From the IMG/VR virus record IMGVR_UViG_3300032883_000203: a DNA stretch of 39,624 nucleotides. One strand, given 5' to 3'. The DNA is from a virus. Made by a program: the position numbers and the translations under genes. The notes below the pieces were generated by a model, which was given only the letters and a program-made list of their open reading frames with translations, was not told the origin of the DNA and made no database searches. Shown in pieces: positions 3,009 to 39,624 of the stretch. Every line of letters begins with the position of its first letter. The first letter of the stretch is position 1.

Positions 3009-3739
3009 TGGAAAGGCCCCTTGTGACCCACGAACAGACTACCCTCACGATTCGCCATCGGCATCTCCTCGAAGTTGACTACACGCTTCCAGTCGTTCTT
3101 CTGTGACCACATCGGCACGCCAATCTTGTTGAAGTGGTCATAGATCTCGTGTGCATTGGTCCCGTTGCGGACCTCGAGCACGCAGTCCATGTGAGCACAG
3201 TCATCAGCCGTCATGGTCTTGCACAGTTCAGCCTCGTTGCCTTCGCTGTCGATCTTGGCGAAGTCAGTGCCGGGCCAGAGATCCTTGCAGTCCACTACCT
3301 TGACCACAGTTTTCTCGGTTGGTCCATAGCTGTGCTTGAACCCTTCCAGATGATTGCCGGTCAGGTTGTTAAGCACCCGAACGAAGCTCGCATTCCCGTT
3401 CTCGGTGGATACCGCATAGTTGAATGGTCTAACCCTGTTGGCACTGTTGGCCGCTAGGTTCTCAAGCAGTTTCGGAAAGTGCTCCGGGTCGGGCTCGTAG
3501 CACCTGACATCCCAGCCCATCCTGGCCATGCAGATGGAGTGCAAACCAAGGTTCGCGCCGATGTCCAGCACGTGTTTCCAGCGGTGCTTGTTCTGTGCGT
3601 ACATGGCAAAGATCATCAGCTCGGTATCGCCGAACAGGTGAAGACTGTCGATGTTCCCCATCTTGACGTAAGGGAACTTGATGGGTCCGAATGGCCCGAA
3701 ACAGTCTGTAAGCACCTGCTGCGCACGGGCGCGGCTCAC
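3005..3739 (-). CDS. FkbM-family SAM-dependent methyltransferase, 244 aa
   Basis: LDIGANLGLHSICMARMGWDVRCYEPDPEHF motif block. 4-nt overlap with the downstream glycosyltransferase gene. Confidence 0.7.
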   Translation of the reverse strand: MSRARAQQVLTDCFGPFGPIKFPYVKMGNIDSLHLFGDTELMIFAMYAQNKHRWKHVLDIGANLGLHSICMARMGWDVRCYEPDPEHFPKLLENLAANSANRVRPFNYAVSTENGNASFVRVLNNLTGNHLEGFKHSYGPTEKTVVKVVDCKDLWPGTDFAKIDSEGNEAELCKTMTADDCAHMDCVLEVRNGTNAHEIYDHFNKIGVPMWSQKNDWKRVVNFEEMPMANREGSLFVGHKGPFQ

Positions 3740-4053
3740 TCAATCCCCGCCATTTGTCGGTCTTCCTTGTAGGTTCCAGCCTGCACGTTGTCTCCTTCGA
3801 TGGTTGCGATGATGGATTTTTCCCGCAGCACCACCAACATTTCCCCGTTCACTGTCGTGATCTGGTGTCCGTTGGTGGAGAACAGGATCTTGTCTCCGGC
3901 CTTGACCGAGGTTGCCTTCGGACCTGACGCAACAACCGTCCCGATGTCCTCGCGGTAATCCTCAGACCATGCCAGGAGAATACCGCCAGCCGAAACCTCT
4001 GCAGGCTCCGACCGGCGGATGACGACCACATCTCCAAGAGGGGAGATGTTCAT
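3736..4053 (-). CDS. GroES/Cpn10-like co-chaperonin, 105 aa
   Basis: ISPLGDVVVIRR...AGGILL...IGTVVASGP...VKAGDKILF...GEMLVVLREKSIIATIE follows the GroES consensus (PLgDRVlV...GGI...G.VvAvG...vkvGD.Vlf...DIlA). Confidence 0.75.
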   Translation of the reverse strand: MNISPLGDVVVIRRSEPAEVSAGGILLAWSEDYREDIGTVVASGPKATSVKAGDKILFSTNGHQITTVNGEMLVVLREKSIIATIEGDNVQAGTYKEDRQMAGIE

Positions 4054-4303: not shown

Positions 4304-5500
4304 TTACGCACCTCCCAGACGGGTAGCGAGTTCATCGTAGTACACGGTCGACCCATACAGAATGTCGATCCGCGTCGGGAACACGTCGTTGTTGATGTCG
4401 TATGCCCGGATGACGCGCATGCTGATGTTACGGTAGGTCTCGCGGGCAGCGAAGTCCACCCCTTGCGGGATCTCCATCGGCACCATCACCAGACCGAATG
4501 CATCACGGGTGAACGCGATGTTCTGCGGAGAACCGATTTGCGTGTTGGTCGTGCCAGTCAGCCAGGTAACGGTCGTTGCAACCGCCATGGCGCCCGTAAC
4601 GTTCTGGTAAGGGCCAGAAGTAACGATTGCCGGGCTGAACGTGAGGATGGTGGTCGATGCAGCGGCACTCGTGGCCGTCAGCGTGAAGTTCTTCAGCACG
4701 CCGGTCGACTGGCGGGACTGCGGATTCACGTTGAACACGCCGTTGACCGTGAACACTTCACCGATGGCGTAGGTATCCGCAGGCGTTCCACCGAATACGC
4801 TGGTGGTGTTGCCGTTACCCTGGGCCGTGGTGATGACCGCGGTCAGCGAGGTATTGTGCTGCGCACCAGCCAGAGCCTGGATGTTCTGGTCCATGTAGAC
4901 CTCGTAATTACCGATGGTCGCAAGGTAGCCTTTGACCAAGGCATCCTTTGCGGTCGGCATCACGAACAGACCCGTTTGACCACCGGCCAGGCCCCAGTAC
5001 CCGTTCGGGTTCAAAACCAGCGTCCGGTTGTCTTGAGGTGCCGAGTTGTCATCCATGCGGCGCCCGGTCAACTGCACCGAGCTGGAAAACGCCACAGGGT
5101 TGACCGTGGGCGTGCCCACGTAGTTGCTGATGCCCGTGACGTTGGTGAGTACGTCAAAGTCCACTTGGTTCGCCAGAGAGGCCATGGAAGGCTTCAGGTA
5201 GCGCTCGGAGAACTCCTCGACCGTCAGCGTCAGGTCTTGGGACGTGAACTGGAAGTCGACGTGCTTCTGTTGGTTGACTGTGATGGTGACCGACGGTTCT
5301 GCAATGTTCTGGACTTGCAGGCCCGCGCCCGACGCAACCGTGAACTTGTTCGGCTTCCTGATCGTGAGAGCGTTACCGATCTTCACGAACTGGTTCTCGA
5401 ACTTGCGGTTGATGCGGTTGGCGGCCACCAGGTTGTTCTCCAGGATCACCAATGATTCCTTGGTGATGATCGTAGGAGTAAGCAGTACCTGGGTAGACAT
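4304..5500 (-). CDS. Major capsid (coat) protein, 398 aa, resembling the family annotated P22-coat-like
   Basis: N-terminus LTPTIITKESLVILENNLVAANRINRKFENQF..GNALTIRKPNKF. AAGGAG 7 nt upstream of the ATG. Position after the scaffold gene. Confidence 0.8.
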   Translation of the reverse strand: MSTQVLLTPTIITKESLVILENNLVAANRINRKFENQFVKIGNALTIRKPNKFTVASGAGLQVQNIAEPSVTITVNQQKHVDFQFTSQDLTLTVEEFSERYLKPSMASLANQVDFDVLTNVTGISNYVGTPTVNPVAFSSSVQLTGRRMDDNSAPQDNRTLVLNPNGYWGLAGGQTGLFVMPTAKDALVKGYLATIGNYEVYMDQNIQALAGAQHNTSLTAVITTAQGNGNTTSVFGGTPADTYAIGEVFTVNGVFNVNPQSRQSTGVLKNFTLTATSAAASTTILTFSPAIVTSGPYQNVTGAMAVATTVTWLTGTTNTQIGSPQNIAFTRDAFGLVMVPMEIPQGVDFAARETYRNISMRVIRAYDINNDVFPTRIDILYGSTVYYDELATRLGGA

Positions 5501-5515: not shown

Positions 5516-6556
5516 TTAGTGCCTGGCACCTCGTCCCCAATCGGCCTTGCGCTTGGCTGCGTACTCTTCCATGGACATGTCCTCGAGGGACTTGCTCACG
5601 GTGTCGCTGCCTGCTGCGATGGGCTTGATGGGTCGCGGTGCGGCGGATACAGGGGGTTTGGTTGCTGCAGGTGGAGTTTGATTCGCCAGCTTGTCGCCAA
5701 TTTTTCGCAATGCATAAACCTGCTCAAGTATGTTCGGAACAATTTCCATTTGACGTGTATTCGGGTTGAACAACGTCAATGTCATGTTCGAAATTCGAGC
5801 CGCTTCTTCAGGATGACTCCCAAGGTAATGCTGAATATCAACACCGTGTTCGTTCTGCTTGATCTCTTCTGCCATGGGCCTTGAAACAGTAACGTCGGGC
5901 CTTCTCGCGACTTCATCGAAATCGGGATACCTTTCCACGGCTTTACTGACTCTCAACGCATAGGCTTCATCAATCGTACGTTGTTGTTCTTCAATTACCC
6001 TTGCTTGTGCTTCCCGCATTGCTTCAAAACGAGCTTTCTCGATTTCCCTTCGGGCTGTCCATGCGGCCTTGGCCTCGGTGTGAAAGTCCATGGCAGCGTC
6101 ATAGGCATCCGGATCGGAAAAATCGTGGCGCGATGGCCTGACGGGCTCCGAATCGTCGCGCTGTGGTGCCGGCGCCGGCGGTTCCTCGGGATTACCCGAA
6201 GCCCTTTCCAGTGCGGCCAACGCTTTGGCAAGTTGTTCGCTTGCCTGTCGCTCTCGTTCCCGTCCTTCTCGTTCCTCTCTTAACTGCTGACGCAACTCCG
6301 CGAGTGCTTTTCCAACACCACGGGGCTTTTCTTCTCCCGCCTGTTGTCCGGATTCCTCTTCCGTCGCAGGGGTCGCCGATTCCCCCGGTTGTTCCGCCTG
6401 AGCTTCAGGTTCTGCTTCAACCTTGGCAGGCTCGGCCGCTACAGAGTCTGGCTTTGTCTCTACCACCGGCATGTCATTGGTGGAAGACAATGGCGGACTC
6501 TGCTGGTCCAGCAGGTCAAGGACGGCAGGTTGCTCGACTACTAGTGCATCAGACAT
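5516..6556 (-). CDS. Scaffolding protein, 346 aa
   Basis: Acidic, Ala/Glu/Pro/Arg-rich and apparently helical; sits immediately upstream of the coat gene. Confidence 0.6.
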   Translation of the reverse strand: MSDALVVEQPAVLDLLDQQSPPLSSTNDMPVVETKPDSVAAEPAKVEAEPEAQAEQPGESATPATEEESGQQAGEEKPRGVGKALAELRQQLREEREGRERERQASEQLAKALAALERASGNPEEPPAPAPQRDDSEPVRPSRHDFSDPDAYDAAMDFHTEAKAAWTARREIEKARFEAMREAQARVIEEQQRTIDEAYALRVSKAVERYPDFDEVARRPDVTVSRPMAEEIKQNEHGVDIQHYLGSHPEEAARISNMTLTLFNPNTRQMEIVPNILEQVYALRKIGDKLANQTPPAATKPPVSAAPRPIKPIAAGSDTVSKSLEDMSMEEYAAKRKADWGRGARH

Positions 6557-8289
6557 GTGGGCGATCCCTTCCTATGGTGAAAAAAAAACTGTGCCATCTC
6601 CATGATGACCTCTTCGTCATCCTCTTCCTCGATGTGCTCGACCAGCGCGTTGATGCGCTCGGTCAGTGCGTCAGCACGGGCGATGTATGCATCAGCCGTT
6701 GCCGGGGTCGGGACTTCCTCGATGAAGGTATCGACCTCTTTCACCACCTTGGCAATTCGCTTGGCCTCGGCCTTCGGGAGAATGCCCATCTCGATGCGCA
6801 GCTGCTTCATGCGCTCGAGTTCCTCGGCCTTGTCCTTCAGGTCGCGATACCACCAGGGGCGGCGGGTGCCATCGAAGCCTTCGTAGCCCCACCATGCGGG
6901 CGCACCGCCGGACGGGGCTGGTGGAGCAATGGGCGTGGCGCCGCTAAGACCGGATGCTGCCGCCTGGAGCGCCTTGAGGGAGTCGACGCTGTAGCCGCGA
7001 GCACCGACAGCGCCGAACGCCTGTGTCTGGAGAGCCCGCAGCGTGTCGACGGCACCGGTCACGGAACCGGAACGACCCGTTGCCGTGTCCGTCAGGGGGC
7101 GCAGCGTGCCGGCAGCGCCGCCTACCACGAGATTGCTGCTGACCGTGCCGCCGGCATTGGTCAGCAAGGCGCGCAACGTGTCCTTGGCGCCCGTAATCGC
7201 GCCGGCAAGGCCCGTCGCCGCTTCGTTGAATGCGCGCAGGGTATCGGTCGTTCCGGCGGAGTAACTGACCGTGCCGCCGGACAGGTTCGTGAGGTGCTTG
7301 AGCGTATCCGTGCCCCAACCGATATCGCTCAACTGCCCGGAAGCGGTCGCAGTAATGGGCTTCAACGTATCCCTGCCGCTGCCGATGTCTGCAATGGCGC
7401 CAGTCGCGCTCGCGGTCAACGGCTTGAGCGTGTCCTTTGCCCCCGTCAGCGCACCGCTGGCACCGGTTGCAGTCTCGGTCAGCGCCCGCAGGGTGTCGGT
7501 CGTGCCGGCTAGAGCACCTGCAAGACCGGTCGCCAGTTCGGTGAGCGGCTTGAATGTATCGGCGCCGCCGCCGGTCGCATTTGTGACGCCACTGGGAGCA
7601 TTTACGTAGATTTGTGGTTTCCTGGGCGGAAACAACGACCACGGGTTCTGATGCAGCTGAAAAATCTCCGAATCCGTGAGGACGCGGTAGAACACATAGA
7701 CAAGGGCAACGCCACCCGTTAAGAACGTGGCGCCACGCTTGCCAATGAACAGGTTCTGGCTGCTCGTTATGCTTCCAGTAGCGCCGGTGGCATCGGTCGC
7801 TTTCCTGCCATCGGCGAAGAATGACAAGGTGGGACCTGTGAATCTGCCGGTAAAGTGATGGAATTGGCCATCGTTGAATCCGGTGATCGTGCCAGTCGGC
7901 AAGATGGACCCACTCGACTGTGAACGAGCCCCCATTGCTCCAGGCGTAGCGCCGAGTCCACAAGCGAGTTCGAATCCGGCTGTGCCGGTACTTGACCGAC
8001 TGGAGATAAAGAACGAATCCGCCTGCGAGCTTTGTGCTATGACCCCGAATGTAACCGTGGAAGTGACAAGCGCTGCTCCGAGGTCTGTCGACTGCGAGGA
8101 ACTCGCCGTATAACTGCCGGCAATGACCTGTCCTACGACAGAAGTGCCGAAGCCGTTCTGATATCTGGGCGGGAATGTCGTCGAGTTGACGGGCGTCCAG
8201 AGCAGCGTAGGCGCTCCGAAAGGCCCGTTGTATATCTGCCCTGATATGCCGAGCGGCTGTACATCTCTTTTGCCAGGCAGGAGGATCAT
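6541..8289 (-). CDS. LamG/concanavalin-like lectin-domain protein with ten 21-aa repeats and a helical acidic C-terminus, 582 aa
   Basis: N-terminal GQFHHFTGRF...LSFFADG...NLFIGKRG...VYVFYRVLTDSEIFQLHQNPW (Laminin_G_3-like). Repeats have the form DTL[KR]xLTxxAxGxxGxxxG. C-terminus WWGYEGFDG...KAEELERMKQLRIE...EEEDDEE. Confidence 0.65.
   Translation of the reverse strand: MILLPGKRDVQPLGISGQIYNGPFGAPTLLWTPVNSTTFPPRYQNGFGTSVVGQVIAGSYTASSSQSTDLGAALVTSTVTFGVIAQSSQADSFFISSRSSTGTAGFELACGLGATPGAMGARSQSSGSILPTGTITGFNDGQFHHFTGRFTGPTLSFFADGRKATDATGATGSITSSQNLFIGKRGATFLTGGVALVYVFYRVLTDSEIFQLHQNPWSLFPPRKPQIYVNAPSGVTNATGGGADTFKPLTELATGLAGALAGTTDTLRALTETATGASGALTGAKDTLKPLTASATGAIADIGSGRDTLKPITATASGQLSDIGWGTDTLKHLTNLSGGTVSYSAGTTDTLRAFNEAATGLAGAITGAKDTLRALLTNAGGTVSSNLVVGGAAGTLRPLTDTATGRSGSVTGAVDTLRALQTQAFGAVGARGYSVDSLKALQAAASGLSGATPIAPPAPSGGAPAWWGYEGFDGTRRPWWYRDLKDKAEELERMKQLRIEMGILPKAEAKRIAKVVKEVDTFIEEVPTPATADAYIARADALTERINALVEHIEEEDDEEVIMEMAQFFFHHRKGSPTCLMH
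6940..7572 (-). repeat. About 10 tandem coding repeats of about 63 bp (21 aa) inside the LamG-like gene
   Basis: Units such as TTDTLRALTETATGASGALTG, AKDTLKPLTASATGAIADIGS and GRDTLKPITATASGQLSDIGW, read from the translation. Confidence 0.8.
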
Positions 8290-18452: not shown

Positions 18453-19159
18453 ATGAGCTGGCTCTTTTCGCGGGCGCTGGTGGAGGCATCCTTGGCGGGC
18501 ACCTACTGGGATGGCGGACCGTCTGCGCCGTCGAGGTCGATCCCTACGCAGCAAGCGTACTTGCCTGCCGACAGAATGAAGGCATTCTCCCGCCTTTCCC
18601 GATTTGGGATGACGTTCGGAGTTTTCGAGGAGAAGTATGGCGAGGCATTGTTGACGTGGTATCTGGCGGCTTTCCCTGCCAGGACATCAGCATCGCCGGA
18701 AAGGGCGCCGGAATTGACGGCGAGCAGTCGGGACTCTGGTCTCACATGGCGCGGATCATTGGCGAGGTTCGACCCCGCTATGCGTTCGTGGAAAACAGTC
18801 CAGCTCTCATTACTCGCGGACTCGGACGAGTGCTCAGTGATTTGGCCGCGCTCGGGTATGACTGTAAATGGACAGTGCTGGGAGCTGATGCCTGCGGATT
18901 TCCTCATCACAGAGCCCGATTGTGGCTGGTTGCCAACTCCAAGCGGAGTGAACGGCGGGAGGAATCACACGATGGGCCGCGTGGACGAATGGGGAGGGTC
19001 AAGCAACCCGCTTCGGGGAACAGAGATTGGCAAAGCGTTATCACCCAATTTCGAGGAGATCGTTATGGGCTTCCCGATAGATTGGACCGCACTGACTGCA
19101 TTCGAAACGCACAAGTTCCGCTCGTGGCGGCAACAGCATGGCGACTGCTGACGTCATGA
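18449..19159 (+). CDS. DNA (cytosine-5) methyltransferase, short type, 236 aa (GTG start)
   Basis: Motif I LFAGAGGG; motif IV GGFPCQDIS; motif VI FVENSP; motif VIII PHHRARLWLVA; C-terminal GLPDRLDRTDCIRNAQVPLVAATAW (motif-X-like). GTGA overlap upstream and ATGA overlap downstream. Confidence 0.8.
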   Translation: MNELALFAGAGGGILGGHLLGWRTVCAVEVDPYAASVLACRQNEGILPPFPIWDDVRSFRGEVWRGIVDVVSGGFPCQDISIAGKGAGIDGEQSGLWSHMARIIGEVRPRYAFVENSPALITRGLGRVLSDLAALGYDCKWTVLGADACGFPHHRARLWLVANSKRSERREESHDGPRGRMGRVKQPASGNRDWQSVITQFRGDRYGLPDRLDRTDCIRNAQVPLVAATAWRLLTS

Positions 19160-20123: not shown

Positions 20124-20308
20124 ACGATTGCGCGATGTGCTGGAATATGACCCGTCTGGGGGTGAGCAAAAGACCATCCGGAAAATGGATCTGTCGAATC
20201 GTTGTTGCCGGCGCTTCGGTACACATCGGAACCTTTCCAACCGCTGAGGCCGCACATGCTGCCTACGTGTACGCCAAGCGCACGCATCATAAGTACGGGA
20301 CACTCTGA
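20110..20308 (+). pseudogene. Decayed HNH/AP2-type homing endonuclease: N-terminal leader plus AP2-like DNA-binding tail in two frames, nuclease core deleted
   Basis: Frame 1: MLTAERLRDVLEYDPSGG..., stop at 20247. Frame 2 from GTG 20162: VSKRPSGKWICRIVVAGASVHIGTFPTAEAAHAAYVYAKRTHHKYGTL. The frames meet at a G5 run. Confidence 0.55.
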
Positions 20309-22314
20309 TGCTCGTGTATTTATTCGACGGAACTCATACCGGCCTGTTGGTCGCATCGAACGTGATGCCGCTGGCCATCGGGCTGATCGGGGCCAACATC
20401 AGGCGTGAGATCCCCGAGGCCCGCGTGGAACTGTTCAAGTACCCGGATGACCTCGACGCCGCCCTTGCCCGCAAAGTCCCCGACGTGTTCGGCATCAGCA
20501 ACTATTCATGGAACTGCGAGCTGGGCAACGCCTACATGGCCCGCATCAAGCACCGCTGGCCCCATGTGGTCTGTATCGCAGGTGGCCCCAACTACGACAA
20601 GGAAACTGCTCATGAGTACTTCGAGCGCTACCCCGCCACGGACTTCTACGTATTCGAAGAAGGTGAGCTTGCCGTTGTGCAGCTGCTTCGGGTTCTTGCT
20701 GAACGGGGTTTCGCAACTCATGGAGTGCGAGTGCCAGGCTGCCACTACATGGAGGGAGGCAAGCCCGTACAACCGGAGAACCTTCCACGTCTGCGATCCC
20801 TCGACGATCTCCCGAGTGCATACACATCAGGATTGATGGACAAGTTCTTCGATGGCGTGCTGATACCCATGACGCACACCACCCGCGGCTGTCCGTTCTC
20901 CTGCACCTTCTGCACCGAGGGCAACAGCAACTGGAACCGTGTAGCGAAGCGAAGCACCCTGTCGGACGACCTCGAGTACATCGCACCCAGGGTCGGCACC
21001 ATCCGCGACCTGTACCTGTCCGATGCAAACGTGGGCATGTTCAGCGAGGACAAGGACAAGGCCCGCGCTATCCGCTCCGTGCAGGACCGCTACAAGTGGC
21101 CCGAGTACATCCACTGCTCAAGCGGCAAGAATCACAAGGAAAGAGTGCTGGAGTTTGCCGAGATCGTCGGCGGCAAGATGGCTGTCAGTGCTTCCATGCA
21201 GTCCACGAACAAGGCTGTGCTACAGAACATCAAGCGCGAGAACATCAGCGTAGAGCAGCTCGTGGACGTGGCCAGGGCCGGCAGCAAGATCGATGCGAAT
21301 ACCCATGCCGAGATCATCTTGAACCTGCCGGGCGACACGCTGGAGGCCCATATCCAGAGCCTGAAGGATGCCGTTAACTCGGGCGTGTCCTACCTGCGCA
21401 TGTATCAGTTGATCATGTTGCCTGGCACGGAGATGAACAGTCCGGAGACCCGGGCAAAGTACGGCATCCGCACCCACTGGCGCGTCATGCCGCGCTGCTT
21501 CGGTCGCTATCACTTCCAGGGAGAGTCCTTTGACTGCGCAGAGATCGAGGAAATCGCCACTTCTCAAGCAAGCCTCCAATTCCCACAGTATCTCGACGCT
21601 CGCGAATGGGCTCTTACGGTCGAGATATGCCACAACGCGAACGTATTCCGTGAACTCTTCGGGCTCTGTGCTGTTTCGGGACACGAATGGTTTCTACTAC
21701 TCACTCGCTTCCATGAACGACGGCGGGACCATCTACGTGAACTGTACGACCAGTTCCGACAGGAAACCGTCGCCCCCCTCTGGGAAACCCACGAAGAAGC
21801 CCTGAAGTTCGCGTCCACCCACATCGACCAGTACCTGACCGAAGCCCTGGGCGTTAACGAGCTGTTCAACGCCAAGGCGGTTGCGTTCTTCGAGCTACAA
21901 GACAAGGTGCACGACGCCCTGTATGGCGAGGCCATGCGGCTCATGCCCGAATATGGAGAGTACCTTGAGCAAGCAAAGAGTTTCAGCCTTCAAAGGAAGC
22001 AGCGCCTCCTGGACCCTGAGCCGGGACGAGTCGAAAGATACGACTACGATTTCGCTGCGCTACTCGAGTCAGACTTCGCCGGAGATCCTCACAGCCATCG
22101 ACGCCCTGTTACGGTTGGTTTCTTCCACGACGCCGATCAGCGGGACTACATAGACCAGCTCGTGCACCAGTACGGGACCACCAACACGGGCCTCGGCCGC
22201 ATCCTGCTGCGCTCGCACGTCAAGAAGTTGTTCCGCAAGGTCCAGATCAATGGGGTGGAGACCGAGCGCGGGTTCGAGAACCAGTACAGACGCAGTACCA
22301 ACCTCGGTGACTGA
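20308..22314 (+). CDS. B12-binding-domain (class B-like) radical SAM enzyme, 668 aa
   Basis: N-terminal Rossmann-like ...VVCIAGGPNY...TDFYVFEEGELAV; radical SAM cluster motif CPFSCTFC (CxxxCxxC, nt 20890-20913); long helical C-terminal extension. Confidence 0.75.
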   Translation: MLVYLFDGTHTGLLVASNVMPLAIGLIGANIRREIPEARVELFKYPDDLDAALARKVPDVFGISNYSWNCELGNAYMARIKHRWPHVVCIAGGPNYDKETAHEYFERYPATDFYVFEEGELAVVQLLRVLAERGFATHGVRVPGCHYMEGGKPVQPENLPRLRSLDDLPSAYTSGLMDKFFDGVLIPMTHTTRGCPFSCTFCTEGNSNWNRVAKRSTLSDDLEYIAPRVGTIRDLYLSDANVGMFSEDKDKARAIRSVQDRYKWPEYIHCSSGKNHKERVLEFAEIVGGKMAVSASMQSTNKAVLQNIKRENISVEQLVDVARAGSKIDANTHAEIILNLPGDTLEAHIQSLKDAVNSGVSYLRMYQLIMLPGTEMNSPETRAKYGIRTHWRVMPRCFGRYHFQGESFDCAEIEEIATSQASLQFPQYLDAREWALTVEICHNANVFRELFGLCAVSGHEWFLLLTRFHERRRDHLRELYDQFRQETVAPLWETHEEALKFASTHIDQYLTEALGVNELFNAKAVAFFELQDKVHDALYGEAMRLMPEYGEYLEQAKSFSLQRKQRLLDPEPGRVERYDYDFAALLESDFAGDPHSHRRPVTVGFFHDADQRDYIDQLVHQYGTTNTGLGRILLRSHVKKLFRKVQINGVETERGFENQYRRSTNLGD

Positions 22315-22315
22315 C

Positions 22316-22519
22316 ATGCGGTTACGAACGCCACGACGGTACAAGCCCAACATCACTTTTAAACGACATGGCAGCAGATACGAAGCTGTCGTGGTACTGG
22401 CAGAAACGCCGCGTTCATCCTCACCAATAATTGTCGAAGGGTTCGGCAAATCCATGATTGAAGCTGCCCGCAATGCCAACAACGCGCTACAGCGTTTCCT
22501 CAGAGCTAATCGGTACTGA
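22316..22519 (+). CDS. Small basic protein with a dsRBD-like signature, 67 aa
   Basis: YEAVVVLAE......IIVEGFGKSMIEAARNANNALQRFL matches the dsRNA-binding-domain C-terminal pattern (G.G.S...A...AA..AL..L). Confidence 0.35.
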   Translation: MRLRTPRRYKPNITFKRHGSRYEAVVVLAETPRSSSPIIVEGFGKSMIEAARNANNALQRFLRANRY

Positions 22520-22522
22520 CAA

Positions 22523-23452
22523 ATGAAAATCCTGCTCACTGGCGCAGCCGGCTACGTCGGCTCTGCGCTACATCACAAGCTTCTGGATGCTGGCCATGAA
22601 GTAACCGGCATAGATACCGAATGGTTCGGGCGAAGCGAATGTGATGTAGAAAAGTTCGATGTCCGCAAGCTCGACCAATCCAGATTAGACAATCTGGGAG
22701 GTTTCGAGGCCATCATCCACTTGGCCGCCATCAGCAATGACCCGTCGGTGTCGCATTACCCGCGGCTGTCGTGGGAGACCGGGGTACTGGCTACACAGCA
22801 GCTCGCGCAGATGGCATCCAAGACGGGTTGCCGGTTCATCTATGCCAGCTCGGTGAGCGTGTACGGAGCCGACCGCGGGCAAGTCGTGGAGGACATGGAC
22901 CTGCACCCGCTGTCGGACTACAACAAAACCAAGATGTGCGCCGAGCGAGTGTTGCTCAGTTACCCGGAGATCCGCCCCCAGATCATCCGCCCGGCCACCA
23001 TCTGCGGACTGTCACCCCGCATGCGGCTCGACCTCACTGTGAACCTGTTCACCATGCAGGCGCTGATGAACGGCGTCATCACGGTGCACGGTGGGCAACA
23101 GTACCGGCCCAGCATCCATATCGACGACATGACGGATCTTTACCTGTTCATGCTCGACCATCCGGAACTGACGGGCATCTACAATGCCGGATTCGAGAAT
23201 CACCAGCTGATCGAGATAGCCCGGACCATCGGCCACATGACCGGCGCAAAGGTGGTGGTGACCGAGCAGAAGGACACGCGCAGCTACAGGGTCAACTCCG
23301 ACAAACTGCTGGCGACCGGCTTCAAGCCGAAGAAGAACATCCGCATCGCCATTGCCGAGCTCGTCATCGCATGGGAGGCCGGCACCCTGCAGGACCTGCC
23401 GCAGTGGACGAACCTCACCTGGATGCAGCACCTGGGGATCAAGGATGAATAA
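22523..23452 (+). CDS. Extended SDR (NAD-dependent sugar epimerase/dehydratase family), 309 aa
   Basis: ILLTGAAGYVGS Rossmann motif; ASSVSVYG; catalytic YNKTK. Confidence 0.8.
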   Translation: MKILLTGAAGYVGSALHHKLLDAGHEVTGIDTEWFGRSECDVEKFDVRKLDQSRLDNLGGFEAIIHLAAISNDPSVSHYPRLSWETGVLATQQLAQMASKTGCRFIYASSVSVYGADRGQVVEDMDLHPLSDYNKTKMCAERVLLSYPEIRPQIIRPATICGLSPRMRLDLTVNLFTMQALMNGVITVHGGQQYRPSIHIDDMTDLYLFMLDHPELTGIYNAGFENHQLIEIARTIGHMTGAKVVVTEQKDTRSYRVNSDKLLATGFKPKKNIRIAIAELVIAWEAGTLQDLPQWTNLTWMQHLGIKDE

Positions 23453-24122
23453 GACCTGCATTGTCCTCGGCTCCGGCTCCGACATCATGGGCAACCTCGA
23501 GCCCTTCCTGCGCCGCTCCTACAAGATTCACGAATGGAAGCGCGGCGAGTCCCTGCCGCTCGATGACTGGGACCTCGTCATCTGCTCAGTGGGCACTGTT
23601 GCCCCTGTCGGGCTGTGGCACAGCGTCGATGAGATCGAGTGGCTGCACAGCATCGAGTCCAACCTGATCACGCCCTTCCGGCTGCTGCAACGGCTGTGGC
23701 CCACGCACAACCCTGGCGCGTCCGTATGCTTCATGGCCGGCAGCAACCCCCAGATGGTGATGAGCGGCTACAGTGCCTACAACACGGGCAAGATGGCGCT
23801 CCTGAAGATGGTCGAGCAACTGGACCACGAGAGCCCCGATGCCAAGTTCTTCGCATTAGGCCCCGGCACGATCCTCACCAAGATCCACAAGCCCACCATG
23901 GACGCCGGATGGGACAATCCGAAGCTCGCCGCGGCGCTGGCCAAGGACGAGGCCCGCGAGCTGAAGATTCGCCAGGTCTACGAGTGCCTCATGTGGGCAA
24001 TCGACCAGCCGAAGGATGTTATTGGCGGTCGCAACATCTGCGTGAGTGACCAGTGGGGGCCGGGCCTTGCCTGCATGCTCAAGGCTGACCCGTGGATGTA
24101 CAAGTTAAGGCGCGTCGAATGA
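23445..24122 (+). CDS. Atypical short-chain dehydrogenase/reductase-like protein, 225 aa
   Basis: CIVLGSGSDIMG dinucleotide-fold start; YSAYNTGK (YxxxK); 8-nt overlap with the upstream gene. Confidence 0.55.
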   Translation: MNKTCIVLGSGSDIMGNLEPFLRRSYKIHEWKRGESLPLDDWDLVICSVGTVAPVGLWHSVDEIEWLHSIESNLITPFRLLQRLWPTHNPGASVCFMAGSNPQMVMSGYSAYNTGKMALLKMVEQLDHESPDAKFFALGPGTILTKIHKPTMDAGWDNPKLAAALAKDEARELKIRQVYECLMWAIDQPKDVIGGRNICVSDQWGPGLACMLKADPWMYKLRRVE

Positions 24123-24796
24123 CCGCCCCCGTCATTATCGGCAATGCCACGCTGTACCTGGGCGATTGCCTTGAAATCCTGCCGACGCTAGGGAAGGTGG
24201 ATGCGGTCATTACCGACCCGCCGTATGGGATTAGAGCCAACGAAAACCCCGTGCGTGGGCGTTGGGGCGCTTCTGTGGAGGCTGGCGGGGCGTGGGATAG
24301 GGAAAGGCCAACCGAGGCGCTGTTGGCTCTCGTGGTGGCTTCTGGAGCTAAAGCCTGCATTTGGGGCGGCAACTATTTTGCCGATATGCTTCCACCAACA
24401 ATGGGTTGGCTGATTTGGGACAAGATTACGCGGGATTTCAGCCTTGCAGACTGCGAATTAGCGTGGACTTCGGAAAATAGGGCTTCGCGGATATTTACAA
24501 AGTCTCGTAATCCAGACGACAAATGGAAGGGGCATCCGACCCAGAAGCCCGTCAGTTTGATGGAATGGTGCGTGGCACAATTAGGTAATCCAGAGACCAT
24601 CCTCGACCCCTTCATGGGCTCCGGCACCACAGGTGTCGCCTGCATGAACCTCGGCCGCAAGTTCATAGGCATCGAGATCGAACCGAAATACTTCGACATC
24701 GCATGTGAGCGGATTGAGAACGCACAACGGCAGGGGACGTTGCTGGATGCCTACGATTCGACGGACAGGAGTCACGAACAGGTGAAGTTGCTATGA
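24119..24796 (+). CDS. N6-adenine / N4-cytosine DNA methyltransferase (beta class), 225 aa
   Basis: LYLGDCLEILP...VDAVITDPPYG (motif IV) precedes HPTQKP...DPFMGSGTTGVA (motif I); ATGA overlaps on both sides. Confidence 0.8.
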   Translation: MTAPVIIGNATLYLGDCLEILPTLGKVDAVITDPPYGIRANENPVRGRWGASVEAGGAWDRERPTEALLALVVASGAKACIWGGNYFADMLPPTMGWLIWDKITRDFSLADCELAWTSENRASRIFTKSRNPDDKWKGHPTQKPVSLMEWCVAQLGNPETILDPFMGSGTTGVACMNLGRKFIGIEIEPKYFDIACERIENAQRQGTLLDAYDSTDRSHEQVKLL

Positions 24797-25365
24797 AAGT
24801 CGCTGAAGCAGTGGCACGCTTCCTGCAAGAAAAGGGACTGACCCACGTGTTCGGCGTGAACGGCGGGGCCAACCTTCACTTGATCCATGGAGTCTGTGAT
24901 GTCACCACGATCCAGTTCATCCCCGGCACGCACGAGTGCAACTCCGGCTTTGCGGCTGATGCCTACGCTCGCGTGGCTGGTCTTGGCTGCGCTATGGCTA
25001 CAAGTGGCCCTGGGGCAACCAACCTCATCACCGCCATCGCTACGTCCTATTACGATTCCGTGCCAGTACTATATATCACCGGAAATGTTGCCACCTTCCG
25101 ATTCGGATCTCGTCTAGGCGTTCGGCAGTACGGGTTCCAGGAGACCCCGATTGTCGACATGGTCAAGGACATCACCAAGTACGCCAAGCAGGCGGTGAGG
25201 GCTGACGATGTCATCCCCCTTCTGCAGATTGCCATCGAGTGGATGAACACGGGGCGCAAGGGACCGGCGCTCATCGACATACCCGACGACATACAAAGAG
25301 CCGACACTGGATGGTCACCGGAACTGTCGTGGATGGTCGAGCCTACGGAGCTGGTGGACGAATGA
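24793..25365 (+). CDS. ThDP-dependent enzyme, N-terminal pyrimidine-binding domain only (acetolactate-synthase-like), 190 aa
   Basis: VFGVNGGANL...THECNSGFAADAYARV...ATSGPGATNL...PVLYITG. Confidence 0.75.
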   Translation: MKVAEAVARFLQEKGLTHVFGVNGGANLHLIHGVCDVTTIQFIPGTHECNSGFAADAYARVAGLGCAMATSGPGATNLITAIATSYYDSVPVLYITGNVATFRFGSRLGVRQYGFQETPIVDMVKDITKYAKQAVRADDVIPLLQIAIEWMNTGRKGPALIDIPDDIQRADTGWSPELSWMVEPTELVDE

Positions 25366-26495
25366 ACCAGATACATGAAGTAGCCGACCTGCTGGTCGAG
25401 GCCCGTCGCCCGGTCTTCATCTGGGGAGCCGGCATCCGTCCGTATGCAGCAGAGGCCCTGTACCTGGCCCGCAGGCTGATGGTCCCGGTCGTGACTACAT
25501 GGGGCGCCATCGACCTGATTCACCACGATGATCCACTGATGGGAGGCGGCTTTGGAACACACGGAACTCGCGCAGCTAATTTCACGGTGCAGAACAGCGA
25601 CCTCGTTGTGTCCATCGGATCAAGACTCGATACTAAGGCTACTGCAGACCCCAGAACCTTTGCCCGCGGAGCACGCATCGTTATGGTCGATGCCGATCGT
25701 GCGGAGATTCACAAGTTCGATCAGCTCGGACGGACCATAGATGTACCGCTGTGCATGGACGCGGGTCAGTTCATCAAGCAACTTACCGAGGCAATCACCC
25801 TCTGGTCAGACAAGCTCGCATGGGTGCGGCAGGTCCATGACTGGCGCAAGCGCTATGACACGCCGACCGTGACATGGCCGGGCGTCAATCCCTACGAGTT
25901 CATGAAGGAGTTGGGCAAATGGACGACACCCGTGGATACGATTGTTTCGGATACTGGTACTGCGTTGGGCTATCTGATGCAGTCCTTCCCATTCAAAGGG
26001 GAACGGATGATCCATGCCTTCAACATGACCCCGATGGGCTACGGGCTGGCCGGAGCAGTTGGAGCGGCCTTCGCGACGAACAGGCGGGTGATATGCATCG
26101 TCGGGGACGGTGGAGCGATGATGTCATTGCCCGAACTCGCGACCATTTCCAGATGGAACCTGAACGTGAAAGTGATCCTGTTCAACAATCACGGCCACAA
26201 CATGTGCCGGCAAACTCAGCGGCAATGGCTCGGTGGGAAAGAGTATGCGACGAGTATTGAAGGCGGTCTCGGTTTCCCCGACTTCCATCTGACAGCACGG
26301 TCCTTTGGTATTCCGTCGTGGACCGACATCCATTACCTGTTCATGGACGACAAGCCCGGCTTCATGGAAGTCGAGATCCACAAGGATGCGCACCTGATAC
26401 CGCAGGCACGGTTCGGCAAGCCCCTGGAGGATGCCGAACCGGAACTGCCGCGGGACGAGTTCTACAGGCAGATGATCATCAAGCCGATGGCATGA
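25362..26495 (+). CDS. ThDP-dependent enzyme, middle plus C-terminal diphosphate-binding domains, 377 aa
   Basis: ARRPVFIWGAGI (middle domain); GDGGAMMSLPELATISRWNLNVKVILFNNHG (GDG-x24-NN ThDP-Mg motif); ATGA junction with the N-domain ORF. Confidence 0.75.
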   Translation: MNQIHEVADLLVEARRPVFIWGAGIRPYAAEALYLARRLMVPVVTTWGAIDLIHHDDPLMGGGFGTHGTRAANFTVQNSDLVVSIGSRLDTKATADPRTFARGARIVMVDADRAEIHKFDQLGRTIDVPLCMDAGQFIKQLTEAITLWSDKLAWVRQVHDWRKRYDTPTVTWPGVNPYEFMKELGKWTTPVDTIVSDTGTALGYLMQSFPFKGERMIHAFNMTPMGYGLAGAVGAAFATNRRVICIVGDGGAMMSLPELATISRWNLNVKVILFNNHGHNMCRQTQRQWLGGKEYATSIEGGLGFPDFHLTARSFGIPSWTDIHYLFMDDKPGFMEVEIHKDAHLIPQARFGKPLEDAEPELPRDEFYRQMIIKPMA

Positions 26496-26660
26496 ATGAC
26501 CCCGAAAGAGTTACTCGCCAAGGCAAAAACACTTGACATCGAGACAGCCGTGCTCATCACGGTACTGCCCGACGGCAAGCTCTATTGCCTCAGCACAGAA
26601 CTGGATTACGAAAAGCTGATGGACATCATCCGCCGGTTCCTGAAAGACCTAGATACGTGA
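26496..26660 (+). CDS. Hypothetical protein, 54 aa; last gene of the early arm
   Basis: ATG directly after the upstream TGA (TGAATG). Below the ORF-track cut-off. Confidence 0.35.
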   Translation: MTPKELLAKAKTLDIETAVLITVLPDGKLYCLSTELDYEKLMDIIRRFLKDLDT

Positions 26661-29393: not shown

Positions 29394-30683
29394 CTACCAG
29401 TGCGGGCATTCCTCGTAGCCGAGGGCATGTAGTGTCGGGAGTTGTTTCTCCAGGCGCTTGCCGATGTCGTCACGGACGATGCGGTTCGCGAACTTGATGC
29501 GCTCAATGGTCGAGTACACCTGCGGTATCGCATCGTGTACGTCGGGCGCCAATGCCAGAGCGACACATGGCATGCTGCCGGTACTCAGGTACTGATCCTT
29601 GGCCAGGCGCATCTGCACGGGCGCGATGTTGCCCCACTGCTCCTCGATGCCGGAGATCAGCAGGCCCTCGGACTTGTGCTCCTCGTCCGGGTACGGAAAC
29701 GGGGGTGCTGCCATCACCACGCCGATAGCGGTGCGCTCGTCCACCTCGAGCGTGTCCTTGCCGGTCAGGCAATCCTTCATCCACTTGACCGGGTCGCCCT
29801 TGTGGCAGTGGTACAGTATGGGCGTGCTCGGGAACCCGAAGCGCGTGGTCCACTCCAGCACCCAGGGGGTCCCTTTGTCGTCGATGATGCAGTTAAGGTC
29901 CACATCGCCGATGTGCTTCAGCTCCACGAGCAAGTCTTCCATGGGCTTCAGCACCGTGTCAGCGAGCTTGCTCTGCGAACTGTACTTGCAGACGGTGCCC
30001 ATCTCGCCCGTGGCAGGACCGTAGTCACCGGGCATCAGCTTCTTGAACTCGAAGTTGATGTTCCACGTGGAACCGATGAAGCCCTTGCTGCCCATCCAGC
30101 CGGACACGCCGACCTCGATGCCTTCGATGAATTCCTGCATCATGCACGGACCCTTCAGCGTGAGGCCCTGCTGTATCCATGACTTGATGCGCCAGGTCAT
30201 GTCGGCACTGCCCGAGCTGACGTAGGACATGGACTTGTCCTCATCGTCGCCCAGGGTCTTGAACACGAGCTTGCGGTCTTCCTTGGCAGCGTAGGCCATG
30301 GCCGCCTGCAGGGTCGGGAAGGTCTGATATTCCGGCACCTGGATGCCTTTCGCCTGCAGCGCCTTCATGCCCTGCTCGCGCTTGATCTCGAGCGCCGCTG
30401 ACTTGGCAGACGGACCGAACACGGGGAAGCCGAACCCTTTGTAGCGGTCTAGCTCGGCAGTAACCGGACCGTTGAACATGTTCACGATGAGCCCGGACTT
30501 TGCCCATGCCATCTCGGTCTTCCAGGACTCCACTTTAGTGATACCCGGGAAGCCCTCGCAGTCGCGTGATTTGCCGCCCGTCTTCGGCTTCGGCTGCCAC
30601 AGCCTCACGTCGTGACCCGCAGCGCTGGCACGGTAGGCCAGATCCTGCCCGGACATGTCGGAGTCGATCAGGAGGATGTTCAC
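29394..30683 (-). CDS. ATP-grasp ligase related to PurD (glycinamide ribonucleotide synthetase-like), 429 aa
   Basis: MNILLIDSD...; FEFKKLMPGDYGPATGEMGTV aligns with PurD QDHKRL.DGD.GPNTGGMG; VLEWTTRFGFPSTP aligns with VLEFN.RFGDPETQ. Confidence 0.65.
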   Translation of the reverse strand: MNILLIDSDMSGQDLAYRASAAGHDVRLWQPKPKTGGKSRDCEGFPGITKVESWKTEMAWAKSGLIVNMFNGPVTAELDRYKGFGFPVFGPSAKSAALEIKREQGMKALQAKGIQVPEYQTFPTLQAAMAYAAKEDRKLVFKTLGDDEDKSMSYVSSGSADMTWRIKSWIQQGLTLKGPCMMQEFIEGIEVGVSGWMGSKGFIGSTWNINFEFKKLMPGDYGPATGEMGTVCKYSSQSKLADTVLKPMEDLLVELKHIGDVDLNCIIDDKGTPWVLEWTTRFGFPSTPILYHCHKGDPVKWMKDCLTGKDTLEVDERTAIGVVMAAPPFPYPDEEHKSEGLLISGIEEQWGNIAPVQMRLAKDQYLSTGSMPCVALALAPDVHDAIPQVYSTIERIKFANRIVRDDIGKRLEKQLPTLHALGYEECPHW

Positions 30684-38141: not shown

Positions 38142-39577
38142 CAGAACCCCGCCACCGTTATCTCGGCACTCGCCCCGGTAATGACGCGCTGCACGGGGTC
38201 GGTAATGCGCAACTTCAGCACCCAGTCGCGGGCAGCACCCAGCGAGCGCCACTTCACCCGCTGCGTGTACTCGCCTATCTGTCCCATGCTCGAGTAGCCA
38301 ACACTGAAGAACGTATTGCCGCCGTCCTTCGATACCTGCAGATCCATGACTGGGATAGAGCCCTGACCGGTCACCAGCCCGACACCCGACTGAACATCAA
38401 TCTGGATGTCATTTATGCCTAGGAATTTGTCGTCATTCCAGATGTGCTTGCTCCAGATCTCCATGGGCAGGATGGAGCCGGAGTCGGTATTCGTATGCGG
38501 GTTCATCACGTACAGCGCGCCGCTTCGGTAATCTGCCACGATGATCTTGTTCTGGAACAGGGCGAACTTCTGTCCCCAGAAACGGGTGCCGTCGCTCGCC
38601 TGTACTTCGCTCCAGACATTCGTGAGACCGTCATACATCCATGTATCGTCTCCCGTTGGCAGGTTCAGCAGATACATGGGGTGACCATCGAACATGAACC
38701 CGAACCCCAGGGCATCGGTCGTGGTCATGTAATTGCCGAGAATCTCGTCAATGTCGTGGTCCGATATTTTCTGCAGGTTGAAGCCCTGCAGGCGCGCCAC
38801 CTGAACACCGCCCATCTTGTTCCTGAACAAGCCCACCACGGAGTTATCGAACTTCGCGAGCGAGAACGAGGCATTCAGCCCGAACTCCTGTGACGAACCC
38901 GGAATGAGCGCAAACGGAAAGTCAGGCGTTCCCTGGTTCTGCCAGAACTCCGTGTAGACATCGCCGAACAGGTTCAGGATGGAATGGTCCGACATGCAGC
39001 CCTGTAGCGAACCGGCACCGGAACCCGCGAAGTTGATCTGTATCGCAGGCCATATGGTCGGGTCCACGCTCGGAGTGATCTGGCTCAACTGGAACTGACG
39101 CCCCGTGCCGCTGGTGACGATGAAATAGCTGTCTTGCCACGTCACCATTTCCGGAGTGGTCGTGAAATTCCCGTCCGTGATACGGTTGACCCCAGCCGGC
39201 ACCGACATGTTGTAGACGTATCCGTTCGCGCCATCCACAATCACGAGGAACTTCCCATCGTCGGCCATGGATACAGGTCCGGTCGAAGTCAACAAAGTAC
39301 CGATGGCCGTGACAACCCCGGAATTGTTGATGGAGTACACCGCCTGTCCATGAACCGTGAACAGAAGCGGTTGCGTCAATGTGTTGACGGCCCACAGTCC
39401 GCGACTTGGATTGACACCGAGGGAACTGATGAACGGGTCGAGTCCCGGCCTGCCTACCAGGGCATATTCGGTGCGGTCAGGTTCCTTGCGCAGCTCGGCG
39501 AAACAGTTGATGCGCCGCTGTGCCGTGATGGCCCAGGACTCGGACTTGGTGCCTACGCCGAAAAGTTGGACGCGCAC
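38141..39577 (-). CDS. P22 gp10-like tail hub / packaged-DNA stabilisation protein, 478 aa (GTG start; track ATG 39622 would overlap the adaptor gene)
   Basis: C-terminus RVKWRSLGAARDWVLKLRITDPVQRVITGASAEITV resembles the P22 gp10 C-terminus as I recall it. Size is 478 aa against 472 aa. GGGGG lies upstream of the GTG. Confidence 0.6.
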   Translation of the reverse strand: MRVQLFGVGTKSESWAITAQRRINCFAELRKEPDRTEYALVGRPGLDPFISSLGVNPSRGLWAVNTLTQPLLFTVHGQAVYSINNSGVVTAIGTLLTSTGPVSMADDGKFLVIVDGANGYVYNMSVPAGVNRITDGNFTTTPEMVTWQDSYFIVTSGTGRQFQLSQITPSVDPTIWPAIQINFAGSGAGSLQGCMSDHSILNLFGDVYTEFWQNQGTPDFPFALIPGSSQEFGLNASFSLAKFDNSVVGLFRNKMGGVQVARLQGFNLQKISDHDIDEILGNYMTTTDALGFGFMFDGHPMYLLNLPTGDDTWMYDGLTNVWSEVQASDGTRFWGQKFALFQNKIIVADYRSGALYVMNPHTNTDSGSILPMEIWSKHIWNDDKFLGINDIQIDVQSGVGLVTGQGSIPVMDLQVSKDGGNTFFSVGYSSMGQIGEYTQRVKWRSLGAARDWVLKLRITDPVQRVITGASAEITVAGF

Positions 39578-39624
39578 ATTACCCCCGCGGGAAGCCGTCC
39601 ATGTAGATGTTGTAGGTGGCATTG
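39502..39624. repeat. Second copy of the terminal direct repeat (identical to 1-123)
   Basis: Exact identity with the window start. Confidence 0.95.

Follow-up and report, generated by a model that had tools for sequence, protein, structure and literature searches.

The metagenomic virus record IMGVR_UViG_3300032883_000203 (39,624 nt; hereafter, the window) carries at 20308-26495, on the plus strand, a tightly coupled early cassette that encodes a cobalamin-type radical S-adenosylmethionine (SAM) enzyme, short-chain dehydrogenases/reductases (SDRs), and a split thiamine diphosphate (ThDP) enzyme, which raises the question of what such a cassette makes and where its product goes. To address this question, we compared the window with ~10 related phage contigs and 11 bacterial loci. 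The comparison points to a sugar-nucleotide tailoring pathway with a YerE-type branching step, a reading that we hold with good confidence. The fuller proposal, in which a branched, methylated heptose would be made early and used by a glycosyltransferase (GT) from the head operon, with the virion as the likeliest acceptor, has in our judgment an even chance of being correct.

Enzymes of the early operon

Direct reading of the sequence bore out the seven open reading frames (ORFs) of the initial annotation and all of the overlapping or abutting junctions that it listed, namely (i) TGATG at 20306-20310, (ii) ATGAATAA at 23445-23452, and (iii) ATGA at 24119, 24793, and 25362; between the first two genes, the stop codon at 22312-22314 is followed by an ATG at 22316. 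The 5' end of the operon is also coupled, with a 57-aa AP2-domain ORF (20135-20308) preceding the radical SAM gene, as is the 3' end, where TGA and then ATG (26493-26498) lead into a 54-aa ORF (26496-26660, plus strand) that has no significant Pfam match and was not found in the relatives. Coupling of start and stop codons this tight is usual in phage operons and is unremarkable alone, and scans for promoters and terminators inside the operon returned nothing above chance. The cassette occupies 6188 bp of ~39,500, which agrees with the earlier estimate of about one sixth of the genome. Searches with Pfam and NCBIfam profiles confirmed six of the seven domain assignments, the exception being a small ORF that had been labeled as double-stranded RNA-binding domain (dsRBD)-like.

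The last two genes of the cassette, assigned to the proposed branching step, encode the N-terminal (Pyr) domain subunit of a ThDP enzyme (ThDP-N; 24793-25365, 190 aa, TPP_enzyme_N 2e-30) and a subunit comprising the middle and C-terminal (PP) domains (ThDP-MC; 25362-26495, 377 aa, TPP_enzyme_M 1e-28, TPP_enzyme_C 1e-27). All three Pfam domains are present, ThDP-MC contains a GDG-x24-NN motif, and the catalytic Glu resides in the N domain. The initial annotation had described this pair as a split, acetolactate-synthase-like enzyme, and the PDB matches refine that description: ThDP-MC is nearer to 8rph (JanthE, a YerE-like ketone-accepting carboligase; 4e-45) than to Escherichia coli AHAS I (6e-36), and ThDP-N is nearer to 5ahk, which we take to be PpYerE (4e-37), than to true AHAS (2e-27). 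The two subunits together are thus predicted to form a YerE-like carboligase. Enzymes of this kind transfer acyl units from 2-oxoacids onto keto-sugar nucleotides, and the branch is then processed by a reductase (PMC12247030). The comparison bears out the split as genuine and as conserved among phages, with ThDP-N being a separate ORF in every phage relative that has an intact frame (L006, L008, L009, L010, L011, and L179); in bacterial loci L001, L003, L174, L175, L176, and L105, the homologs are fused.

The extended SDR (22523-23452, 309 aa; Epimerase 1.8e-35) carries the motifs TGAAGYVGS and YASSVSVYG...YNKTK, and its top NCBIfam match is ADP-heptose 6-epimerase (8e-22). Its top PDB match is 6vo6 (8e-27), with the second best being eight orders of magnitude weaker (5e-19), and the SPRMRLDL motif is common to both proteins. 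We take 6vo6 to be Cj1427, the GDP-heptose C4-dehydrogenase of Campylobacter jejuni. In C. jejuni, Cj1427 acts in capsular heptose modification, together with a 4,6-dehydratase, epimerases, and C4-reductases (PMC10680097). By analogy, the extended SDR is predicted to be a nucleotide-heptose dehydrogenase that would act at C4 and give a keto-sugar acceptor. A role as a true 4,6-dehydratase was rejected, because the Asp-Glu pair of those enzymes is absent. The second, short and divergent SDR (23445-24122, 225 aa; adh_short 4e-6, adh_short_C2 2e-7) matches, in bacterial loci L176, L003, and L174, just those adh_short genes that neighbor FkbM and ThDP genes (33-38% identity) and none of the other SDRs in these loci. 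It is predicted, by analogy with YerF, to be the ketoreductase of the added branch.

The first gene of the cassette (20308-22314) encodes a 668-aa protein with Pfam matches to the B12-binding (1.5e-7) and Radical_SAM (2.3e-7) domains. The latter scores 31.6, above the cut-off of 29.5; the former scores 31.7 bits against a cut-off of 32.1, and the alignment with TokK begins at residue 57. The three cysteines of its CPFSCTFC (CxxxCxxC) motif, C195, C199, and C202, are invariant across 28 homologs, and its only two PDB sequence matches are TokK (3e-42) and CysS (5e-25). The protein is assigned as a probable class B radical SAM enzyme. The best NCBIfam match, the KedN5 family (NF033712; 2e-40), aligns with residues 19-389 at 138.6 bits against a cut-off of 700, which makes the protein a relative and not a member of that family. 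TokK, CysS, and KedN5 are B12-dependent C-methylases able to act repeatedly on one substrate. These enzymes and ThnK act in antibiotic biosynthesis and share the predicted B12-binding and radical SAM architecture of the window protein, which differs from TokK, CysS, and KedN5 in having its own ~280-aa C-terminal region. From these matches, the enzyme is predicted to be a C-methylase, and it may be an iterative one.

Orthologs of the radical SAM enzyme comprise ~50 phage proteins (54-92% identity, on contigs of ≤45 kb) and many bacterial ones (43-53% identity). Two orthologs (P0023 and P0034) are ~930 aa long and contain HNH_3 and Intein_splicing domains, which indicates an intein within the B12 radical SAM gene. 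Further, hundreds of additional viral contigs in IMG/VR encode a B12-type radical SAM protein at 25-35% identity (loci L013-L088), with many of these genes sitting near epimerase-type SDRs and cytidylyltransferase-like genes, and no YerE-like enzyme was found in the fetched flanks of these loci. The pairing of class B radical SAM enzymes with adjacent sugar genes may recur more widely among phages.

Relatives of the cassette in phages and bacteria

The seven phage relatives that we read (L006/L007, L008, L009, L010, L011, L019, and L179) share a common gene order, namely radical SAM enzyme, extended SDR, second extended SDR, short SDR, ThDP-N, and ThDP-MC, with FkbM, adenylyltransferase, PfkB kinase, and SIS isomerase genes as optional additions after ThDP-MC. 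The closest relative is L179, whose radical SAM enzyme is 92% identical and whose identity to the window is mosaic, ranging from 69% to 92% gene by gene. Rather than being peculiar to this phage, the cassette characterizes an entire clade of metagenomic phages. Its position within the genome varies: in L194, L195, and L205, the tail of the cassette (ThDP-MC in L195 and L205, with FkbM next in L194 and L195) sits just upstream of the terminase gene and on its strand, and the window cassette is convergent with the tail genes. These differences in strand and position indicate that, within the clade, the cassette and the late genes have changed their relative arrangement.

The optional genes of the relatives bear on the identity of the sugar. 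They include a heptose-1-phosphate adenylyltransferase (rfaE_dom_II, 3e-29), a GmhA-type isomerase (gmhA, 1e-18), and a PfkB kinase (ribokinase or rfaE_dom_I, 1e-13), with heptose-activation genes in L008, L009, L010, and L179 and a partial set in L006 and L011. Moreover, orthologs of the extended SDR adjoin HldE-like or PfkB genes in bacterial loci L176 and L174, and identity to the window protein reaches 55% in Reyranella (L103). The leading NCBIfam and PDB matches of the window's extended SDR likewise point to heptose, both being enzymes of nucleotide-bound heptoses. The second extended SDR of the relatives, present in all seven, is dTDP-glucose-4,6-dehydratase-like (5e-57). Among the window ORFs, which we read and compared with those of the relatives, there is no GmhA, kinase, adenylyltransferase, or 4,6-dehydratase-like SDR. 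Since the relatives encode the GmhA, PfkB kinase, and adenylyltransferase set, the substrate is most likely ADP-heptose, which in this phage would be supplied by the host; on balance, we lean toward heptose. The initial annotation had proposed a host precursor on the grounds that no nucleotidyltransferase is present, and the relatives explain this absence; the sugar itself is probably a heptose and not the 3,6-dideoxyhexose of yersiniose.

The missing genes might instead mean that the window cassette is a decaying or rewired remnant that no longer makes the sugar of its clade, or that its product is a soluble compound, for example a modified ADP-heptose, which would act on host physiology or defense. 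Both the absence of four genes that are present in the 92%-identical L179 and the mosaic identity to that relative would fit such a history. Nevertheless, the remaining ORFs are all intact with conserved catalytic motifs, the GC content at third codon positions (GC3) of the neighboring genes is normal, the late FkbM and GT genes are retained, and a Gram-negative host would supply ADP-heptose, so that we regard this explanation as improbable.

In bacteria, the first five contexts of radical SAM orthologs, chosen for their long contigs and including metagenome-assembled genomes of Binatia, Leptospira, Nitrospina, and Chlamydiota, all contain a full-length ThDP enzyme within 10 kb. They also hold SDRs, FkbM (in four of the five), and class-I methyltransferases, often with pyruvate dehydrogenase E1 (PDH-E1) and zinc-dependent alcohol dehydrogenase genes. 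These contexts are polysaccharide loci with GT2 enzymes, and some also have Wzz, a flippase, or other GTs. Heptose activation is represented by (i) fused HldE-type genes in L003 and L176, (ii) separate PfkB and CTP_transf genes in L174, and (iii) GHMP-kinase and NTP-transferase genes of the HddA/HddC type in L001, with none seen in L175; HldE-like genes also lie beside the bacterial orthologs in L094 and L103. A second set, taken from GTDB, showed a tighter core of the radical SAM gene followed by two adh_short genes, with HldE-like and PDH-E1 genes nearby and a YerE-like enzyme in some loci only.

Short SDR, FkbM, and ThDP genes stand side by side in bacterial loci L003, L176, and L174 (the last with an FkbM fragment only), as well as in phages L010, L011, and L019. 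This recurrent trio indicates that the short SDR, FkbM, and the YerE-like enzyme form a conserved unit, and that the FkbM gene in the late operon of the window represents the remaining member of this unit, relocated within the genome. The survey of radical SAM and ThDP neighborhoods that the initial annotation had proposed thus finds the cassette both across a phage clade and in bacterial polysaccharide loci; by homology, the early operon is a pared-down version of a module that occurs in the surface-polysaccharide loci of many bacteria.

The late glycosyltransferase, FkbM, and the acceptor

The initial annotation had tied the cassette to a GT/FkbM pair at 810-3739, and this link was strengthened by the relatives. 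The pair belongs to a block of minus-strand genes that runs from the P22-type coat protein (4304-5500; P22_CoatProtein 4e-35), a candidate acceptor, through a Cpn10/GroES-like protein (3736-4053; Cpn10 5.5e-15), the FkbM-family methyltransferase (3005-3739; fkbM_fam 1e-18, above the cut-off), and the GT (810-3008), to a head-to-tail adaptor-like protein (78-809; phrog_12985, with a weak SU10_adaptor match for the L177 ortholog), which forms the downstream boundary of this late sugar-gene island. The Cpn10/GroES homolog directly after the coat gene is conserved clade-wide. In L010, L011, and L019, the cassette itself contains an ortholog of the late FkbM immediately behind the ThDP gene (61-67% identity), and orthologs adjoin ThDP and adh_short genes in bacterial loci L003 and L176 (42-47% identity). 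The late FkbM is accordingly placed among the cassette enzymes by its neighbors and is predicted to methylate the cassette sugar.

The GT is a soluble, 732-aa protein with two Glycos_transf_2 domains by profile search and three GT-A domains in its AlphaFold2 model (pLDDT 91); no transmembrane segment was predicted in it. The best Foldseek matches of the model are the dual-GT-A polymerases K4CP (8e-31) and PmHS2 (4e-19). Its third, C-terminal domain is a GT-A domain with a conserved IDSD motif, and the solved structures nearest to this domain, STIV A197, the GT domain of LH3, and Mimivirus R655/R699, are GTs of viruses with glycosylated particles and a protein-glycan GT; in BFVD, the nearest are GT-A proteins of uncultured phages, including a fusion with FkbM. 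Full-length homologs at ≥54% identity number more than 120, all on phage-sized contigs.

The order of coat, Cpn10, optional tailoring gene(s), GT, and adaptor was found in all 27 IMG/VR loci with a coat of ≥68% identity, and beyond this identity the GT is weaker or absent. In at least nine relatives, as in the window, the GT and the cassette genes share one contig; for a further 12 pairs of GT and radical SAM homologs, the longest contigs are reported as identical in size. For genomes that carry the GT and lack the cassette, the search covered 10-kb flanks, against a distance of ~14 kb from one locus to the other, and used an overly specific ThDP pattern. The tailoring genes of the late island vary, being FkbM in the window, an RmlD-like reductase and a class-I methyltransferase in L177, and MT23-like in L189 and L194, which indicates that sugar-tailoring genes move between the early cassette and the late island. 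We consider the cassette to be probably coupled in function to the late FkbM and GT.

From these assignments, we infer the following order of reactions. ADP-heptose would be supplied by the host, with related phages making their own through GmhA, the PfkB kinase, and the heptose-1-phosphate adenylyltransferase. The Cj1427-like extended SDR would oxidize the heptose to a keto-sugar. The two-subunit YerE-like enzyme would then decarboxylate a 2-oxoacid, such as pyruvate, and add the acyl unit at the keto carbon, creating a carbon branch and a tertiary alcohol, and the short SDR would reduce the branch ketone. FkbM and the TokK/CysS-like radical SAM enzyme would add O- and C-methyl groups, the latter possibly more than once. 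Late in infection, the three-GT-A transferase would join the modified donor and ordinary host sugar nucleotides into a short glycan or a polymer, most likely on the capsid of the virion. The matches thus support the branched and/or C-methylated sugar of the initial annotation, in that YerE/YerF-type tailoring is combined with a class B radical SAM enzyme; the DNA methyltransferase and the dsRBD-like ORF fall outside the pathway. A phosphonate pathway was rejected, because no phosphoenolpyruvate mutase is present and the ThDP enzyme retains its middle domain.

The virion is our tentative choice of acceptor, since the GT keeps a fixed place among the head-morphogenesis genes and is soluble, the genome looks lytic, and the third GT domain resembles in structure those of viruses with glycosylated particles; taken alone, this assignment falls somewhat short of even. 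The same sugar could instead be attached to the host envelope (lipopolysaccharide (LPS) core, O-antigen, or a capsule primer), where it would block superinfection or the adsorption of progeny to debris. The homology of the cassette to modules of bacterial surface-polysaccharide loci suits this acceptor, as do the structural matches K4CP and PmHS2, which elongate lipid-anchored capsule chains, and PHROG labels the second GT domain GtrB-like. LPS-type genes in pelagimyophages, where radical SAM cassettes have also been noted without a mechanism, have been read likewise (PMC7029224). However, the GT has no membrane segment, the phage encodes no flippase, polymerase, or transporter, and the GT gene, set midway in the head operon, would be expressed late during a lytic cycle. 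No integrase was found among the scanned ORFs of the genome, which led us to reject classic lysogenic conversion. We therefore rate an envelope acceptor as unlikely, though a serious competitor.

Several points weigh against the proposal as a whole. First, the equation of 6vo6 with Cj1427, like that of 5ahk with PpYerE, is presumptive, and neither code could be matched to an enzyme name in the papers searched. Second, the likeness of the radical SAM enzyme to methylases lies mainly in the generic B12/radical SAM core (residues 57-475), and other class B chemistries are possible. Third, with neither the 4,6-dehydratase-like SDR of all seven relatives nor any of the activation genes, the window pathway may differ from theirs or be incomplete. 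Fourth, a ThDP enzyme is absent within 10 kb of the radical SAM gene in bacterial loci L094-L098 and L103, with PDH-E1-type genes in L095 and L103. Fifth, the capsule polymerases that the GT most resembles would suit a host-envelope acceptor equally well. Finally, the Ser+Thr fraction of the coat protein is 0.19 in the GT-bearing clade versus 0.17, a weak difference that is confounded by phylogeny.

Inserted genes, phage type, and known parallels

Two ORFs of the cassette do not belong to the pathway. The ORF between the radical SAM and extended SDR genes more likely starts at 22316 (22316-22519, 67 aa, plus strand) than at 22250. It has no Pfam match at E≤1, no PHROG match, and no dsRBD match in the PDB, where its sole and weak match is uL22 (0.056); its dsRBD label was therefore rejected. 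No homolog occurs in any fetched locus, and its GC3 is 0.52 against 0.65-0.86 in the neighboring genes, which makes the gene itself doubtful or else foreign. In the relatives, the same junction contains nothing, a gap, or an HNH endonuclease.

The embedded DNA methyltransferase (24119-24796, plus strand; CcrM/phrog_67 type) was confirmed as a member of the N6/N4 family (N6_N4_Mtase 1.7e-24, phrog_67 6e-55). Its membership in the pathway was rejected, because it is absent from the cassette in all seven relatives (L006, L008, L009, L010, L011, L019, and L179), and its 90% cluster has a single member. One junction away from the corresponding position, the closest relative, L179, has a Mom-family gene (14118-14552 of L179), and homing-type HNH_3+AP2 endonucleases lie at the borders of the radical SAM gene in L179 (9308-9814) and L008 (12268-12744). 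Such varied genes indicate that the operon junctions are landing sites of small unrelated genes, with the methyltransferase being one of them. The 57-aa ORF at the 5' end of the operon contains an AP2 domain only and appears to be an endonuclease remnant. DNA-modification genes occur in or beside the cassette in three phages, namely Mom in L179, a methyltransferase homolog in L012 (~6532-6783), and the N6/N4 enzyme in the window; these genes probably counter restriction and entered an early operon by insertion, and their recurrence is notable.

This recurrence bears on another proposal of the initial annotation, that the exotic sugar is placed on phage DNA as a hypermodification against restriction. 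The window does carry a C5 methyltransferase gene (18458-19159), and phage clusters of C5-methyltransferase, TET, and GT genes, in which GTs are likewise paired with sugar-nucleotide enzymes, place heptose and other sugars on 5-hydroxymethylcytosine (5hmC) (bioRxiv 10.1101/2023.12.21.572611). Those clusters, however, need an enzyme that forms 5hmC and have their GTs outside the head operon. Among the scanned ORFs of the window, there is no homolog of TET/5mYOX, dCMP/dUMP hydroxymethylase, or thymidylate synthase, and hence none that would make 5hmC or 5-hydroxymethyluracil; the GT is a late gene of the head block and not an early, replication-linked one, and the embedded DNA-modification genes differ among the relatives and are absent from most. 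Thus, DNA as the acceptor is disfavored and appears highly improbable.

The region of the C5 methyltransferase gene contains two long plus-strand ORFs that overlap in different frames across ~700 bp (18453-19159). The frame at 18458-19159 encodes the C5 cytosine DNA methylase (Pfam 1e-31) and has a low GC3 of 0.56, and the frame at 18453-19151 (232 aa) has a GC3 of 0.68 and matches phrog_1008, "DNA methyltransferase" (6e-17). This arrangement could reflect dual coding, or a PHROG family made from wrong-frame gene calls.

The record carries a 123-bp direct terminal repeat (1-123 = 39502-39624), which indicates that the assembly is circularly closed and complete at ~39.5 kb; its GC content is ~59%. 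Profile scans identified the gene set of a P22-like podovirus, including P22 coat, P22 portal, Terminase_3, scaffold, ejection, and head-closure proteins. The best matches of the portal, at 43-45% identity, are from freshwater viromes, Xanthomonas phage PBR31, and Rhodoferax phage P26218, and the host is probably a Gram-negative proteobacterium. A megablast search of the cassette against INPHARED gave zero matches, a tblastn search of the radical SAM, ThDP, and GT proteins against the same database gave distant or host-contaminant records only, and a GTDB scan revealed no prophage, the closest cellular radical SAM protein being 45% identical. This small, P22-like phage is known only from metagenomes and, by these searches, has no close counterpart in GenBank. 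Among its tail genes is a PurD-like ATP-grasp protein (29394-30683, minus strand; GARS_A 1e-10, GARS_C 1e-7), kept at ~78% identity in the relatives, which is a candidate purine-metabolism gene or a candidate ligase that modifies protein or glycan.

Each enzyme type in the cassette is known already, as are phage-encoded sugar genes. The nearest parallels are the YerE/YerF pathway to yersiniose A and those to erwiniose and caryophyllose in bacterial LPS (PMC12247030), which likewise combine an SDR-made keto-sugar nucleotide, acylation by an AHAS-like ThDP enzyme, and a ketoreductase. Relative to YerE/YerF, the window system is phage-borne, its ThDP enzyme is split in two, its sugar is probably ADP-heptose rather than a CDP-3,6-dideoxyhexose, and its enzyme set further includes FkbM and a B12 radical SAM enzyme. 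The capsular heptose modification of C. jejuni (PMC10680097) resembles the proposed pathway in tailoring a nucleotide-heptose, beginning with C4 oxidation, and in the 4,6-dehydratase-like SDR of the phage relatives, and it differs in using GDP-heptose and only redox and epimerase steps, with no ThDP branching and no radical SAM step. With regard to virion glycosylation, mycobacteriophages encode GTs that are proposed or shown to glycosylate capsid proteins (Freeman et al. 2023, as cited in PMC11256854); they use host sugar donors and have actinobacterial hosts, whereas the window encodes a multi-step donor pathway, probably in a Gram-negative host, and its glycosylation is a prediction.

In the open-access literature, we found no description, in phages or bacteria, of heptose activation combined with a Cj1427-like SDR, a split YerE-like carboligase, a reductase, FkbM, and a TokK/CysS-like radical SAM enzyme, and none of the coupling of such a cassette to a three-domain GT in a head operon, or of its correspondence to a widespread bacterial module. 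The statement that no characterized phage system has this composition thus stands as far as the searchable literature goes, although the system itself is present across a phage clade and in bacteria. The same literature contained no description, in any virus, of B12 radical chemistry and ThDP-dependent C-C bond formation combined for a sugar.

In its broadest form, the proposal is that a clade of P22-like phages of Gram-negative bacteria makes an undescribed branched, C- and O-methylated heptose and coats its own capsid with it, and that the same module makes an unrecognized but widespread surface sugar in bacteria, with Leptospira, Nitrospina, Binatia, Omnitrophota, Methylophilaceae, Reyranella, and others as candidate carriers; we regard the whole of this as less likely than not. 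If it is true, a 39-kb podovirus would devote one sixth of its genome to an exotic sugar made by B12 radical and ThDP C-C chemistry, and bacteria would share a conserved, uncharacterized glycan module (radical SAM enzyme, SDRs, a YerE-like or PDH-E1 enzyme, FkbM, and heptose activation) whose product might be worked out by way of a phage operon that is compact and easy to clone. The operon would also furnish biocatalysis with a YerE-like carboligase that is split in nature, as well as with another class B radical SAM enzyme. For the phages, it would provide a candidate case of virion glycosylation outside the mycobacteriophages, which would bear on particle stability, receptor masking, and immune recognition.

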